This document shows positions 40,082 through 50,656 of a stretch of DNA of 64,000 bases, one piece after another. The position numbers were made by a program, and so were the translations under genes. Each line of letters begins with the position of its first letter. The stretch's first letter is position 1. A model generated the notes under the pieces. That model saw only the letters and a list, made by a program, of their open reading frames with translations. It had not been told where the DNA came from and ran no database searches. Source of the DNA: Blastocatellia bacterium (GTDB lineage: Bacteria; Acidobacteriota; Blastocatellia; RBC074); the NCBI GenBank assembly GCA_043783625.1, contig JAYVZE010000179.1, forward strand, positions 527 through 64,526, written 5' to 3'.

Positions 40082-40156
40082 TCCTCAGTAGCTCAATGGC
40101 AGAGCATTCGGCTGTTAACCGAAGGGTTGTAAGTTCGAATCTTACCTGAGGAGCCA
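40082..40156 (+). tRNA. tRNA-Asn (anticodon GTT)
   Basis: Full cloverleaf with acceptor TCCTCAG/CTGAGGA, D-arm GCTC-AATGGCA-GAGC, anticodon arm TTCGG-CTGTTAA-CCGAA, T-arm GTAAG-TTCGAAT-CTTAC, discriminator G and CCA. Confidence 0.9.
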
Positions 40157-40262
40157 ATAAAATCAATTGTTTGCAGCCGTTCATTTTTCCCGAACGGTTG
40201 CAAACAACACAATCCGCAACACACTAATTTTTTTCTTTCCTTTCTCATTTCAATTAAATCTT

Positions 40263-40481
40263 TCAAGCTGCTTTTTTCTCACGAAGAATTTTTCGTAGTG
40301 CTTCGTTGACGGCTTCAGAAGTCGGAAATGCTTCGGCTACATCCGGGGCAAGTGTGACGGTACATAGTTCTACTTTTTTGCCGCGCCTGAATATTTCCCA
40401 GCGGTTGAAATCCGTTTCCGGCTCGACATCATCATTGAGGTCGAAATTGTCGTCTTCAAGCAAAGTAATTTTCTTGTTCAT
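40263..40481 (-). CDS. brnA: BrnA-like antitoxin
   Basis: 72 aa. Overlaps the BrnT gene by 26 nt. RHH/BrnA-like C-terminal region. Confidence 0.55.
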   Translation of the reverse strand: MNKKITLLEDDNFDLNDDVEPETDFNRWEIFRRGKKVELCTVTLAPDVAEAFPTSEAVNEALRKILREKKAA

Positions 40482-40743
40482 ATCTTTCTCTTTCTGAGGC
40501 AGTCGCCAGTCTTGCCGAAATGAGGCGCATTACATTCGATTGTGGCTGGGTGTAGACCACAAGCAACAACCGCCCTTGATCTGATCTGCCGATACATCTG
40601 AATCGTTCCTCGCCAATGGAATGAAGCGTATCGCGCAAGCTGAATTGAAAGTCGTCATCAAAAACCGTAGACGCTTCATCAAATGAAACGCCGTGTTTGG
40701 TCAGATTGCTTTCCGCTTTCGCCGGATACCATTCAAATTTCAT
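40456..40743 (-). CDS. brnT: BrnT-like (DUF497) ribonuclease toxin
   Basis: 95 aa, MKFEWYPAKAESNLTKHGVSFDEA...RLISARLAT. The toxin-first order matches BrnTA. Confidence 0.6.
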   Translation of the reverse strand: MKFEWYPAKAESNLTKHGVSFDEASTVFDDDFQFSLRDTLHSIGEERFRCIGRSDQGRLLLVVYTQPQSNVMRLISARLATASERERYEQENYFA

Positions 40744-40765
40744 CGCTTCGATTCACTGGATACTG

Positions 40766-41107
40766 CTATGCCTTTTGCAATTCTTTCGTGTCCTCGATTT
40801 GACGGACACGCGCTTTGACATGCACTAAGTCACGGATATGAGCATCAAGTCTTGCGTCCATATCTTCAACGTGGATTTCAATGTTGGCTAAGCGTTGGTC
40901 TACGCGGTCAACTTTTTCTTCAAGCCGTGTCAACGATGAAGTGTTGGCATCAATGCGTTGCCGCAGATCAACATATCGTTGCCGGGAATCTTCCGTCATA
41001 GTCCCCATTTGCTCCATCAATGATGATCGAAAGGAATTCACCAAATCAATGAGATGGTCAAGCTTCTGGTCGGTGCTTAAAGGCGGTAATTCTTCGGTCG
41101 TATTCAT
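40766..41107 (-). CDS. Hypothetical coiled-coil protein (island)
   Basis: 113 aa, heptad-rich. Confidence 0.35.
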   Translation of the reverse strand: MNTTEELPPLSTDQKLDHLIDLVNSFRSSLMEQMGTMTEDSRQRYVDLRQRIDANTSSLTRLEEKVDRVDQRLANIEIHVEDMDARLDAHIRDLVHVKARVRQIEDTKELQKA

Positions 41108-41376
41108 TTCTTCACCTCTTTCTTTCGTGCTGTAACGGCTTTAGTGATAGGTTCCACAACCTTCTTTGGTCTGCCTGCCTTGCGCTCCGCCACAAGTGCA
41201 AGATCAGATTCTTTAATGACATGATCGCGTCCAATAAGTTGAGACGGTAAACGCCCTGTACTTATCAATGCCCTAATCCGCATCGGCGAAATTCCTAATC
41301 TTCCCGCCGCTTCTTTTGTTGAAAGTAATTCGGTTTCCATACCAAGTAAGGTACTAAAAATAAAACTATATCGCAA
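41104..41376 (-). CDS. Helix-turn-helix DNA-binding protein (excisionase/MerR-like)
   Basis: 90 aa. LSTKEAAGRLGISPMRIRALISTGRLPS HTH. Basic C-terminal tail. Confidence 0.5.
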   Translation of the reverse strand: MRYSFIFSTLLGMETELLSTKEAAGRLGISPMRIRALISTGRLPSQLIGRDHVIKESDLALVAERKAGRPKKVVEPITKAVTARKKEVKK

Positions 41377-48095: not shown

Positions 48096-48311
48096 TTATT
48101 TTTTTGCCAGCCGTTCGCTTTTCTGGATGAATTCATCAATATGCTTTTGCCCATAAAAGACACGTCCGCCGATGCGGTAATAGCCAATTCTTTTAGCCTT
48201 ACGCCAGCGGAGCAAGGTCAATCGGTTTTTCATTCCTAAAACTTTCAGGGCTTCGGGTTCGCTGTATCTGCGTTCGGTTTGTGATGTTGGTTGCAATGTT
48301 GCGCTAGTCAT
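48096..48311 (-). CDS. AlpA-like/excisionase-type HTH regulator
   Basis: 71 aa. MKNRLTLLRWRKAKRIGYYRIGGRVFY is typical of AlpA/Xis-family winged HTH. Confidence 0.55.
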   Translation of the reverse strand: MTSATLQPTSQTERRYSEPEALKVLGMKNRLTLLRWRKAKRIGYYRIGGRVFYGQKHIDEFIQKSERLAKK

Positions 48312-48559
48312 AATCCGATTTCCTCTCTACAATGAAAACAAAGGGTTTTCCTACTTAAATCAAATCAGGGGTCTTTCCCGCTTGAGTTGATTAAAGGGTT
48401 TATTCTTGGTTAAGGGCTTTCCGGCTTCTTGGTCGTTGTGGGAAAGCCCTTGTTATTTCGTGATGCTTTTTGCTTCACGGGTGTAGTTTCGCTATTAACC
48501 TTAAAGATTCCAATTCCCTTAAAAAATATTTTTATTTGGGAACGTTCCCTAAAGATAGA

Positions 48560-49186
48560 CTACTTTTTAGGGATACTAGCCGGATCAATTCCCAGCCTTT
48601 TCAGTGCAATCTTTTTCATCTCCTCAAATGGAGAACGGTATGGTTCAGCCAGATAAGGCTGCCTATTTTTATCGCTTTCAGTCGCTCTTAAAATCTTTTC
48701 TTTAGTTGGAAGCGTTAGCATTTGTTGGCAGTATTCAAAAAATTTATTCCGCCCTAATCCGGGTTCCGCTTTGCCTTTTTTCTTTGGGTAATGTAGAGCA
48801 ACGTGTACCTCTGTTAGTCCCTTAATAATTTTCCTACCATCCCGACACCCCGAACATTTATTCGCCTCGTCAAAAGCGGTCATCATTTGTCCCCAACGCT
48901 CTTTTTCTACTTGATCCATTTTCGAGAATTGGGCAATATCTTGAAAAATATCGCCAACTAATCCAGCTACGCAGATTTCCCACTCTTTGGTAAACCTGTC
49001 TGGATATGACCACGGATCGTAGGGAGTCGAAAATTCTACTGACATTCCATTGTATTGATATTTTCGGGTGTAGCTTGATTCCCACCTATTTTCAATTTCG
49101 TTCGCAACCAAGTCACCGTGAATTTCTGCTAAAGTGCCTTGCTTTGCGAGCTTCATTGCTTCTTTTGTCGGTTTTTTGTTAGCCAT
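48560..49186 (-). CDS. Hypothetical protein (island)
   Basis: 208 aa, no motif recognised. Confidence 0.3.
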   Translation of the reverse strand: MANKKPTKEAMKLAKQGTLAEIHGDLVANEIENRWESSYTRKYQYNGMSVEFSTPYDPWSYPDRFTKEWEICVAGLVGDIFQDIAQFSKMDQVEKERWGQMMTAFDEANKCSGCRDGRKIIKGLTEVHVALHYPKKKGKAEPGLGRNKFFEYCQQMLTLPTKEKILRATESDKNRQPYLAEPYRSPFEEMKKIALKRLGIDPASIPKK

Positions 49187-49294
49187 TTATCAATCCTTCC
49201 ATTGGTATTCCTTCAAGGTTTTCGGCTTGCCACGGCGTGAAGGTTGCGCCGCTGTCCTTCGGGTAATTACTCCGAAGTGAGCAAGCCGAAATGG

Positions 49295-50476
49295 CTAATT
49301 GACGTACTTCAAATCTGTTTCCAGTGTGTTTTGCTCATGCCATTCATCTAAGGCTTGCGCCCCGCGCCGCGTAATCTGTGGCGTGTGGTCAACGTAGATC
49401 GAAAACGCCGTCAACGTGGAGTGACCGGATAGTTTCATAATCTCAGCAATCGGCATCCCTGAAGCTACCCAACGCGTAATGCAAACGTGTCTCAAATCGT
49501 GAAAATGAAGGTCAATTAAGCCAGCGGCTTTTAATGCAGAAGCCCAGGCATTTTTAAAATTGTCGTTAATCCCAAAGACCAAAACGTCAGGGTCATCGGG
49601 AGCAACCGCCCTGAGCTTTTCCAGTTCTGCAAGTAACCGTTTGGTGAGACCTACGCGGCGTTCCTTTGAGGTTTTGGAATTCATTGCCGTGACTGTGACG
49701 GACTTGTTTTCAAAATCCACGTCGCGCCATTTAAGCTTGATGATTTCACCACGCCTCATGGCTGTATCGAGCGCACAAATAATGATCGGCTTCAAATGTG
49801 AACGTTGCCCTGTACACGCTGCCATCAATCCGGCTTCGTCGGTCATCGTTAAATGTCTATCCCGGCGTTTCTCATCCGCTTTACTGATAAGCCCGGATGA
49901 TTGCTCGAAAGGGGAAATTAGAAGCCAGCCTTGATGCTTGGCAAAGACGAACATTGACCGCATCGTTTCAAGTTCACGGTTGACGCTGGTAATACTGCGC
50001 TCAGTTCCGCGAATGGTTGGCGCCTTGAGCCTTGCCAATTTGAAGGCTTCCAAATCGGATGGTGTCAGGCTCTTGATTTTTCGATGCCCGAAGGATGCCT
50101 TGATGGTTTTGACGTAACCCAAAGGCGCACGCCAACTACGACGCCCGGCTACTTTGCGCTCTTGATGGTATTCGGCGGGTTTGATTTTCGCCTCGACGTA
50201 TTTATCACAAAGATATTTGACTGTGAGTTTTTCGCCGTCCAACGGTTTCTGACCATAATCCTTTAATGTCCGTCGCAAATGATCCAATGCTTCAGATGCT
50301 TCGGTCTTCGTGTCCGCATTGCGAGTCAGGTTTTTGCGTTTTCCTTCAGGTGTGGTGAAGGTCAGGCGAGCAATCCAACGCTTGCCTTGTTTGAAAACAT
50401 ATCCGGTACTTGCCTTCATTTCGGGAATCCTTTCAGTGTCAGTTAATTTTTGGAACAACACATTAAAACAACACAT
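49295..50476 (-). CDS. Tyrosine-type site-specific integrase
   Basis: C-terminal catalytic region HDLRHVCITRW ... LSGHSTLTAFSIYVDH (R-H-R-Y pattern). 393 aa. Adjacent to attR. Confidence 0.85.
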   Translation of the reverse strand: MCCFNVLFQKLTDTERIPEMKASTGYVFKQGKRWIARLTFTTPEGKRKNLTRNADTKTEASEALDHLRRTLKDYGQKPLDGEKLTVKYLCDKYVEAKIKPAEYHQERKVAGRRSWRAPLGYVKTIKASFGHRKIKSLTPSDLEAFKLARLKAPTIRGTERSITSVNRELETMRSMFVFAKHQGWLLISPFEQSSGLISKADEKRRDRHLTMTDEAGLMAACTGQRSHLKPIIICALDTAMRRGEIIKLKWRDVDFENKSVTVTAMNSKTSKERRVGLTKRLLAELEKLRAVAPDDPDVLVFGINDNFKNAWASALKAAGLIDLHFHDLRHVCITRWVASGMPIAEIMKLSGHSTLTAFSIYVDHTPQITRRGAQALDEWHEQNTLETDLKYVN

Positions 50477-50608
50477 TCGACTGTAGCATAGGCAACTGTC
50501 AAAGTAGCAAAATGTAGCGGACGTAGAGACAGAAAAAGCCTGTAAGCAATAACTTACAGGCTTAAATGTTGCTGGATGTAGTTTGATTGTAACTGGCTAA
50601 CCTACGGC

Positions 50609-50656
50609 TGTTAACCGAAGGGTTGTAAGTTCGAATCTTACCTGAGGAGCCAATTA
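50609..50656 (+). repeat. attR: duplicated 3' 48 nt of tRNA-Asn
   Basis: CGGCTGTTAACCGAAGGGTTGTAAGTTCGAATCTTACCTGAGGAGCCA is identical to 40109..40156. The flanks are also similar. Confidence 0.85.

Follow-up and report, generated by a model that had tools for sequence, protein, structure and literature searches.

The 64-kb window analysed here, by which we mean the whole stretch of contig JAYVZE010000179.1 from a Blastocatellia bacterium, holds a 10.5-kb element that is integrated at a tRNA-Asn gene, encodes its own two-piece large terminase (TerL) together with a small-terminase-like (TerS-like) protein, and contains no recognisable virion genes. The flanks of the element, the absence of virion genes and the search for a helper phage were all judged within those 64 kb. 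Homologues of FabF assign the host to the class Blastocatellia of Acidobacteriota, the named matches (88%, 86% and 76% identity) being metagenome-assembled genomes of Blastocatellia or Acidobacteria. A first-pass annotation of the same DNA had described a bounded, capsid-less, satellite-like element in tRNA-Asn, a description borne out by exact attachment (att) repeats, by comparison with a relative contig (L093), by the lack of virion genes and by an architecture that recurs, with att repeats, in numerous unrelated genomes. The boundaries of the element are defined by the following features.

40082–40156, + strand: tRNA-Asn(GTT), the integration target (ARAGORN)
40109–40158: attL core, the left copy of an exact 50-bp direct repeat
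40167–40207, + strand: element-borne hairpin, 3′ of the restored tRNA and in the place of its native terminator (inverted repeat)
49295–50476, − strand: tyrosine integrase (PF00589, 3.7e-25)
50605–50654: attR core, the right copy of the 50-bp repeat
50659–50699: native tRNA terminator hairpin, beyond attR (inverted repeat; comparison with L093)

The tRNA is complete, as first annotated, and is the single tRNA that ARAGORN finds in the window. An exact 48-bp copy of its 3′ end had been reported 10.5 kb further on, next to a tyrosine integrase; that copy exists and is slightly longer, consisting of the 3′-terminal 48 nucleotides (nt) of tRNA-Asn plus AT, identical over 50 bp. Similarity between the two att regions extends past the tRNA (40109–40177 versus 50605–50673, 69 nt at 93%). 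The repeats enclose 10.5 kb, and the integrase gene lies about 130 bp inside the right one. Both flanks carry housekeeping genes, encoding an SbcD/Mre11-like protein and a glycosyltransferase on the left and UbiB, RibF, an MBL hydrolase and TsaD on the right. L093 (87% identity) has a matching arrangement of SbcD, glycosyltransferase and tRNA-Asn, and its tRNA directly abuts the hairpin terminator that in the window is found to the right of attR. Because of this direct abutment, the 10.5 kb reads as an insertion between tRNA-Asn and its own terminator, and the comparison places the predicted integration site between the tRNA-Asn gene and that native terminator. Beyond the terminator the gene contents of L093 and the window diverge, and the empty-site evidence is limited to the att region itself. 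It appears that the element brings with it both a 3′ end for the tRNA and a substitute for its terminator, the hairpin at 40167–40207 having 16-nt arms that are 94% complementary.

One assembly product might be mistaken for an excised form. A Logan contig of 10,506 bp (L001) is identical to window positions 40129–50634, that is, to the element interior plus 30 nt of the repeat at each end. We rejected it as a circular excised form: a 50-bp repeat is expected to break a k=31 assembly graph at exactly these points, which leaves L001 uninformative on circularity. Near-identical DNA in a phage collection was limited to the tRNA match.

The packaging genes of the element are three consecutive genes on the − strand.

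42188–42778, − strand: TerL-C, the nuclease half of the large terminase, a separate protein of 196 amino acids (aa) (phrog_27743, 9e-45; nuclease region of phrog_2)
42744–43532, − strand: TerL-N, the ATPase half of the large terminase, a separate 262-aa protein (Terminase_6N, 1e-10; phrog_7579, 5e-60)
43529–44005, − strand: TerS-like protein, 158 aa (homologue of gp33 of Thermus phage Riverbug)

The large terminase named in the first-pass annotation is thus present, although as two open reading frames (ORFs) that overlap by 35 nt and not as a single gene. Both halves match proteins of solved structure. The family profile of TerL-N (A2) matches the ATPase domain of TerL from Thermus phage P74-26 (PDB 4ZNI, 3e-18) and also T4 gp17, and TerL-C matches the nuclease domains 5M1F and 5TGE of the G20c and P74-26 TerLs (3e-7). 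Conserved positions include the Walker A residues G48-K49-S50-T51, the Walker B residues D134-E135 and several arginines in TerL-N, and D12, D18, D74, D84, K117, E148, D173 and D174 in TerL-C. Catalytic residues are conserved at 89–100% over roughly 130 sequences, and every one of them is present in the window proteins. To judge by these residues, the terminase is functional-looking, with a predicted ASCE ATPase and a predicted RNase H-like nuclease whose acidic residues are conserved.

The closest cultured phages by TerL are Riverbug and Meiothermus phage MMP17, both of which have Mu-like head genes. TerL-N is 47–50% identical to their TerLs over the ATPase domain, TerL-C aligns to their nuclease domain, and an upstream 160-aa ORF (gp33) is homologous to the TerS-like protein. 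However, these are complete phages of 33–34 kb that carry portal, MuF, protease and major head protein genes directly downstream, and their TerL is a single protein of 416–417 aa; against the fused Riverbug TerL, the window TerL-N aligns to residues 1–235 and TerL-C to residues 248–408.

Outside these two phages the family TerL is mostly split. All 120 of the 120 best database homologues of TerL-N are 237–300 aa long, and 124 of the 150 best representatives of clusters at 50% identity are shorter than 395 aa (229–373 aa). Over 67 loci, the frame offset between TerL-N and TerL-C falls into three classes (39, 23 and 5 loci), many of the junctions are ATGA overlaps, and the conserved PLFGG at the C terminus of TerL-N is often encoded as ...TTTGGAGG..., which contains a Shine–Dalgarno sequence (GGAGG) for TerL-C. 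Variable offsets, ATGA overlaps and an embedded GGAGG together point to translational coupling of two polypeptides. The same features and the shortness of the homologues rule out a programmed frameshift or a pseudogene as the origin of the split. Since the homologues are short, the junctions are coupled with variable offsets and the catalytic residues are conserved, the sequences argue that the split is family-wide and ancestral and is not decay.

Immediately upstream, the stop of the TerS-like gene overlaps the start of TerL-N. The 158-aa protein has an invariant CxxC...RH...H motif (CxxC...HxxxH) around a helix-turn-helix (HTH), followed by long helices; an AlphaFold2 model (pLDDT 76) consists of the HTH, a long helical hairpin and two C-terminal helices. 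Its relationship to Riverbug gp33 is clear in profile comparison (hhalign probability 100%, E 1e-42) and in direct search (phmmer, 1.7e-30). Within its family, 6 of 33 members match Sf6_terminase and 11 of 33 match HTH_38, and the gene stands 5′ of TerL-N in 84 of the examined loci, phages and islands alike. Neither Foldseek against the PDB nor a profile search of the PDB went beyond generic HTH or coiled-coil matches. On the basis of synteny with TerL and of architecture, we call the protein TerS-like, a label that the first-pass annotation had also used and that we keep as a prediction. The Riverbug record (L179) allocates these names differently: gp31 (7355–7759, between TerL and portal) is deposited as TerS, whereas gp33 (5517–5999, 5′ of TerL) is deposited as hypothetical, yet gp33 is the conserved partner of this TerL family. 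A homologue of gp31 was found in no island. The TerS assignment in Riverbug-type phages may need revisiting.

The remaining genes and features of the element are as follows.

40263–40481, − strand: 72-aa BrnA-like antitoxin candidate, by position only (overlaps and follows brnT; no family match)
40456–40743, − strand: BrnT ribonuclease toxin (PF04365, 1e-23)
40766–41107, − strand: 113-aa coiled-coil protein (weak coiled-coil matches)
41104–41376, − strand: 90-aa HTH_17 protein, an HTH of excisionase/AlpA/MerR type (PF12728, 4.7e-9)
41364–41419: divergent control region with a 21-nt inverted repeat
41462–41641, + strand: 59-aa ORF preceding the S24-like gene (gene call in the Logan contig)
41622–42104, + strand: S24/UmuD-like protein (PF00717, 6e-8; phrog_811, UmuD-like)
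44006–44353, − strand: 115-aa candidate PD-(D/E)XK nuclease, VRR-NUC or Hjc-like (phrog_93, phrog_5702)
44401–44766, − strand: 121-aa protein (no Pfam, PHROGs or PADLOC match)
44780–45097, − strand: 105-aa zinc-ribbon ORF (DZR, 5.8e-5, under the cut-off)
45122–45330: putative replication origin with 11 iterons, TGGGATCA core, 6 forward and 5 reverse
45339–47099, − strand: DUF927 helicase, a replication initiator candidate (PF06048, 4e-78; HTH_56, 6e-4, a weak Cch-type HTH)
47069–47827, − strand: DUF3854 (Toprim-like) primase candidate (PF12965, 1e-10)
47824–47997, − strand: 57-aa ORF
48096–48311, − strand: 71-aa HTH_17 protein at the AlpA position (PF12728, 8e-6)
48560–49186, − strand: 208-aa protein (no Pfam, PHROGs or PADLOC match)

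Reading from the integrase along the − strand, the order is the 208-aa protein, the 71-aa HTH_17 protein, the 57-aa ORF, DUF3854, DUF927 and the iterons, and then the 105-aa zinc-ribbon ORF, the 121-aa protein, the 115-aa nuclease candidate, the TerS-like protein, TerL-N and TerL-C. The 59-aa ORF and the S24-like gene follow on the + strand, after which the − strand resumes with the 90-aa HTH_17 protein, the 113-aa protein, BrnT and the BrnA-like protein beside the tRNA. All ORFs of the element are intact. The zinc-ribbon ORF is uncertain, being absent from the gene calls of L001.

A replication module of Toprim primase, DUF927 helicase and iteron origin had been proposed, and each part was recovered. 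The DUF3854 translation contains the motifs VEGEKK and FDADAA, the E...DxD signature of Toprim-like proteins. The iteron field lies directly 3′ of the helicase gene and has copies in both orientations; exact copies of TGGGATCA number 10 within 45133–45328 and 13 in the whole 64-kb window, against 2.2 expected by chance.

Several of the other functional names carry over from the first-pass annotation only in part. The AlpA-like regulator is an HTH_17 protein at the expected position, but its score of 26.4 bits falls below the Pfam cut-off of 27, no match to Phage_AlpA was reported and it is no clear AlpA. The supposed S24 repressor belongs to the S24 family, but no HTH or other DNA-binding domain was found in it, and alignment with UmuD and LexA puts an alanine at the position of the catalytic serine. 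For these two reasons a role as a classical, self-cleaving repressor is improbable. Its gene call starts at 41727, which gives 125 aa. A single close homologue, in locus L009, keeps the serine but has an arginine at the position of the catalytic lysine; a small ORF precedes the S24-like gene both there and in the window locus. The Xis-like HTH gene said to diverge from S24 is indeed there, as the 90-aa HTH_17 protein. The inverted repeat in the control region between them overlaps the best sigma-70-like promoter match of the element (41390–41418, + strand, matching at 11 of 12 positions); across the element, promoter-like sites are no more numerous than expected by chance, and it is the position alone that is suggestive. 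For the protein named VRR-NUC, a nuclease is weakly suggested by phrog_93 (endonuclease, 2e-8) and phrog_5702 (3e-6), with Hjc at 0.0098, under the Pfam cut-off, and the VRR-NUC label is weakly supported. Finally, the BrnTA pair contains a firmly matched BrnT, whereas its BrnA is named by position.

The claim that the element lacks structural genes also holds, and within the window none continue just outside its att boundaries. Pfam and PHROG scans found no capsid, portal, protease, tail or lysis family among the element ORFs; comparison of all ORFs of the 64-kb window with portal, capsid, MuF and scaffold seeds and with a related prophage (L002) matched the terminase trio and the integrase only; and the Pfam, PHROG and structural-seed scans found no head, tail or lysis pseudogenes or structural-gene fragments in the element. 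We also found no recognisable capsid-size-redirecting gene in it, and PADLOC found no known defence system or defence protein.

Relatives of the terminase are numerous. We counted 379 loci in species-representative genomes (one genome per species), 252 in IMG/VR and, at E ≤ 1e-30, 2325 protein clusters. The best 80 of the 379 loci, from which the taxonomic spread was taken, come from Chloroflexota, Acidobacteriota, Bacillota, Alpha- and Gammaproteobacteria, Gemmatimonadota, Actinomycetota and Planctomycetota, and include metagenome-assembled genomes (MAGs) labelled Methanomicrobiales, Methanoculleus, Methanospirillum, Methanoregula and Methanothrix. Eight contigs (L020, L022, L023, L037, L053, L063, L064 and L080) are assigned to methanogenic archaea. 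The methanogen-assigned contigs show the layout of integrase, primase-helicase, TerS-like protein, TerL-N and TerL-C, with TerL-N about 50% identical to bacterial forms; they are archaeal by bin assignment alone, the annotation of their flanks being uninformative.

The three closest homologues of the window TerL-N (66–73% identity) all lie in islands that have no capsid gene and that combine a large primase/helicase, the TerS-like protein, TerL-N, TerL-C, an HTH_17 or S24-like protein, and an integrase or a neighbouring tRNA. The next homologue (63%) belongs to the L002 prophage, a real one: downstream of its TerL-C come genes for an SPP1-type portal, MuF, a scaffold protein and an HK97-type capsid. 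The MuF-like head protein of that prophage (L002:11654–14335, 893 aa) gives a weak signal for an intein-splicing domain. When the ORFs of the loci were clustered, only four families proved to be widely shared, namely TerL-N, TerL-C, the TerS-like protein and the integrase. To judge from these gene sets, the terminase trio is the defining conserved feature of the whole family and not an oddity of one element; the first-pass remark that a large terminase is unusual cargo misses that it is what defines this family.

Portal genes were sought chiefly with in-house hidden Markov models (HMMs) built from seven portal clusters, six of which were checked against Pfam (SPP1_portal, Phage_portal_3, Portal_Mu, Phage_portal). 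Among genome loci whose downstream sequence extends 4 kb or more, a portal was found in 0 of 47 and an integrase in 34 of 47; among IMG/VR contigs, 23 of 44 had a portal. ORF calling in the relatives was crude. The Pfam scan of large ORFs 3′ of TerL-C covered the best 25 of 66 families and by itself may miss rare portal matches.

Eleven relatives have exact att repeats of 45–58 bp at the 3′ ends of tRNA-Phe, -Lys or -Pro genes, and several of these are in cultured isolates. The sizes they enclose are 8.3, 9.2, 9.8, 10.0, 10.8, 11.0, 11.5, 11.5, 11.8, 12.2 and 14.6 kb. Replication genes vary among the islands of the family and include D5_N with DUF5906, AAA_25 with Toprim, DnaB-like, Prim-Pol and DUF3854 with DUF927 proteins. 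Some genomes hold more than one locus: one Blastocatellia MAG has four distinct loci (L014, L015, L018 and L031) and one Pyrinomonadaceae MAG has three (L047, L048 and L058). An IMG/VR contig of 12,458 bp (L106, IMGVR_UViG_3300031450_000118) closes into a circle on assembly through a 127-bp terminal overlap; its genes include those for a D5-type primase-helicase, the terminase trio and a 'topoisomerase'-like protein (phrog_6247), and structural matches are absent. Other genes seen in the islands include one for a patatin-like phospholipase directly after TerL-C (L059:11738–12700) and one for a RelA_SpoT-domain protein inside the L005 island (L005:14960–16090).

In a neighbour-joining tree of TerL-N, the island and phage states require 10 Fitch changes, against a mean of 24.6 and a minimum of 20 in shuffles. 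Island and phage sequences therefore cluster yet interleave, with the window clade of four islands sister to the L002 prophage, a pattern that fits several captures of the terminase from phages.

[quoted passage not shown] The element resembles them in its size of roughly 10 kb, in site-specific integration with att repeats, in having an integrase followed by a small HTH protein at the AlpA position, in mostly co-directional genes, and in a TerS-type gene accompanied by no structural or lysis genes. A primase and helicase with an iteron origin directly 3′ of the helicase is a further likeness to PICIs and to Staphylococcus aureus pathogenicity islands (SaPIs). The SaPI module is laid out as pri-rep-ori. 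Unlike PICIs, the element brings its own TerL, in two pieces; its regulator is an HTH_17 protein just under the Pfam cut-off; it has no capsid-size genes; and its host belongs to Acidobacteriota.

Capsid-forming PICIs (cf-PICIs) such as EcCIEDL933 encode both TerS and TerL, with packaging exclusive to the satellite, and also a major capsid protein, protease, portal, head–tail adaptors and HNH, so that only tails are stolen (PMC10085698; cf-PICI preprint). The element shares with them its own TerS-like protein and TerL, but Pfam, PHROG and seed scans detect in it no major capsid protein, protease, portal, adaptor or HNH, and the cf-PICI descriptions that we consulted mention no split in TerL. 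From P4-like satellites it differs in the absence of Psu, Delta and Sid (Pfam and PHROG) and in using DUF3854 and DUF927 in place of D5_N/P4 alpha, although some of its relatives do use D5_N primases. VEIMEs (integrative mobile elements encapsidated in virions), PICMIs (minimalist chromosomal islands inducible by phage) and PICI-like tycheposons, all marine satellites, are likewise small integrative elements with an integrase and a primase/helicase. They are described with TerS homologues, 'motor-like ATPases', a capsid protein or a DNA signal alone, and the DNA of VEIMEs and PICMIs enters full-size heads in concatemeric form. A TerS together with a two-piece TerL is not reported for any of these, a distinction that rests on their descriptions. 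The SatelliteFinder survey does not cover the gene combination of the element. In a literature search of incomplete coverage, we found no published description of a capsid-less element with TerS and TerL, or of this split TerL family, and the element fits no described satellite family that we could find.

Further parallels are two small circular plasmids of the cultured halophile Salinibacter ruber, pSR11 (L180, NC_014026.1, strain M8, 11.2 kb) and pSR14 (L181, NZ_CP030359.1, 14.9 kb), which are mentioned in the literature only as small plasmids with a terminase (PMC6060240). Both have a P4-family primase-helicase, an ORF at the TerS position, TerL-N and TerL-C in the same order, are similar in size and contain no recognisable virion genes; the TerS-like ORF has a homologue in pSR14, whereas an unmatched ORF occupies that position in pSR11. 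They differ from the element in having ParA partition genes and no integrase, which makes them episomal and not tRNA-inserted. Apparently plasmid-form relatives of the island, they would offer a tractable system for tests.

We consider it reasonably probable that the element is a helper-dependent satellite with a PICI-like layout that loads itself into helper procapsids by means of its own terminase; the dependence on a helper is deduced from the genes it lacks. Integration and excision would be carried out by the tyrosine integrase and an HTH_17 protein of Xis/AlpA type. After induction, the Toprim-type primase and the DUF927 helicase would replicate the element autonomously from the iteron origin, and the TerS-like HTH protein would recognise a site on it. 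The translationally coupled, two-polypeptide TerL would then dock on the portal of a helper procapsid and pump the DNA in, with the helper supplying procapsid, portal, tail and lysis functions. Because the element has no recognisable gene for redirecting capsid size, headful packaging of multimers into full-size heads is the most likely mode; as phages with this terminase have genomes of 33–34 kb, about three copies of the element per head would be plausible, although this is speculation. Likely helpers would be phages that share the terminase trio, such as the L002 prophage with its TerL-N at 63% identity. The probable role of BrnTA is to stabilise the element or to aid abortive defence.

A broader proposal places the element in a previously unrecognised and very widespread family of capsid-less satellites, with plasmid-like cousins, that use a three-subunit motor (TerS and separate TerL ATPase and nuclease proteins) to pirate whole procapsids instead of reprogramming the terminase of a helper, and that include satellites of archaeal viruses. 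So defined, the family would span Rhodothermota besides the phyla and methanogen-assigned MAGs listed above. We advance this proposal tentatively, as something that may be so and that we stop short of favouring.

Several observations weigh against the satellite interpretation. Induction, excision, a circular form and encapsidation of this particular element are predictions from its sequence, and no helper phage is visible within the window. The TerS assignment depends on synteny, on homology to an uncharacterised phage ORF and on weak matches to Sf6_terminase, the fold search having come back empty, and the depositors of Riverbug name another gene, gp31, as TerS. The regulatory logic is doubtful, given an S24-like protein that has no HTH and probably no catalytic serine. 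Some 600 aa of element proteins have no functional assignment. The portal HMMs were built in-house, and some of the IMG/VR 'islands' resemble phages whose portals went unrecognised. Tape-measure-like proteins are encoded in or beside two islands, shortly after TerL-C, at L050:12435–15209 and L020:9742–12468 (TMP_2; PhageMin_Tail), the latter in a contig assigned to Methanomicrobiales.

The alternative that survives best is that the locus is an anti-phage interference island or an integrative plasmid, whose terminase would sabotage the packaging of an infecting phage by competing for portals or cutting concatemers, while the element itself spreads by another route. The plasmid relatives pSR11 and pSR14, with ParA and no integrase, speak for such a view, as does the conflict-type cargo found in the family (BrnTA, the patatin of L059 and the RelA_SpoT protein of L005), and satellites generally interfere with the packaging of their helpers (PMC11389934). 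We nevertheless judge this unlikely. PADLOC recognises no known defence protein in the element; a TerS-like specificity subunit that is conserved and coupled to TerL is a requirement of self-packaging; and the tight range of sizes (8–15 kb) and the exact att repeats are as expected under selection for packaging. Interference and self-transfer are, moreover, not mutually exclusive.

It is highly improbable, in our view, that the element is a decayed prophage from which head, tail and lysis genes have been deleted and in which the rest are becoming pseudogenes. The trio is clearly of phage origin, the sister lineage is the L002 prophage, and defective prophages are common (PMC11389934). Yet no ORF is broken and the catalytic residues are conserved; the split in TerL is ancestral and translationally coupled, with no frameshift lesion; no fragments of structural genes are left; and the replication module, with its iterons, is of satellite or plasmid type. 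The same minimal gene set, exact att repeats and sizes of 8–15 kb also recur across phyla, with no portal in any of the 47 loci.

Least probable of all, packaging into something other than a phage capsid (a gene-transfer-agent-like or domesticated chromosomal head locus, or a novel minimal capsid built from unassigned ORFs) could draw on the ORFs of 208, 121, 113 and 105 aa that have no assigned function and on a visible genome of only 64 kb, but a portal, a major capsid protein and a tail are more than so few and such small ORFs could encode, and phage procapsids are the natural partners because the same terminase family stands directly upstream of SPP1-, Mu- and HK97-type portals in real phages.

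If the element is a satellite that packages itself into procapsids of a helper, it would represent a third strategy, between PICIs and cf-PICIs, in which a satellite owns the motor and steals empty heads. PICIs borrow everything and redirect packaging through TerS, whereas cf-PICIs build heads and steal tails. The natural two-polypeptide TerL also offers a system for studying the coordination of ATPase and nuclease and for learning which of the two halves touches the portal. Cultured hosts exist for such work, including relatives in Luteimonas and Lysobacter, Thermovorax, Zavarzinella, Bradyrhizobium and Salinibacter ruber M8. Among them, att-bounded islands are present in Cognatiluteimonas sedimenti, Novilysobacter erysipheiresistens and Luteimonas sp. 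WGS1318, the Thermovorax carrier is T. subterraneus DSM 21563, and phages are known for S. ruber M8, the host of pSR11. There are also consequences for how viruses are counted: TerL is a standard hallmark in virus calling, and because IMG/VR already lists such TerL-bearing islands as 'viral contigs', counts of viruses and prophages are inflated. Finally, to our knowledge, the family lies in phyla in which no satellite has been studied and, if the proposal holds, head-tailed viruses of archaea would gain their first satellites with its archaeal members.

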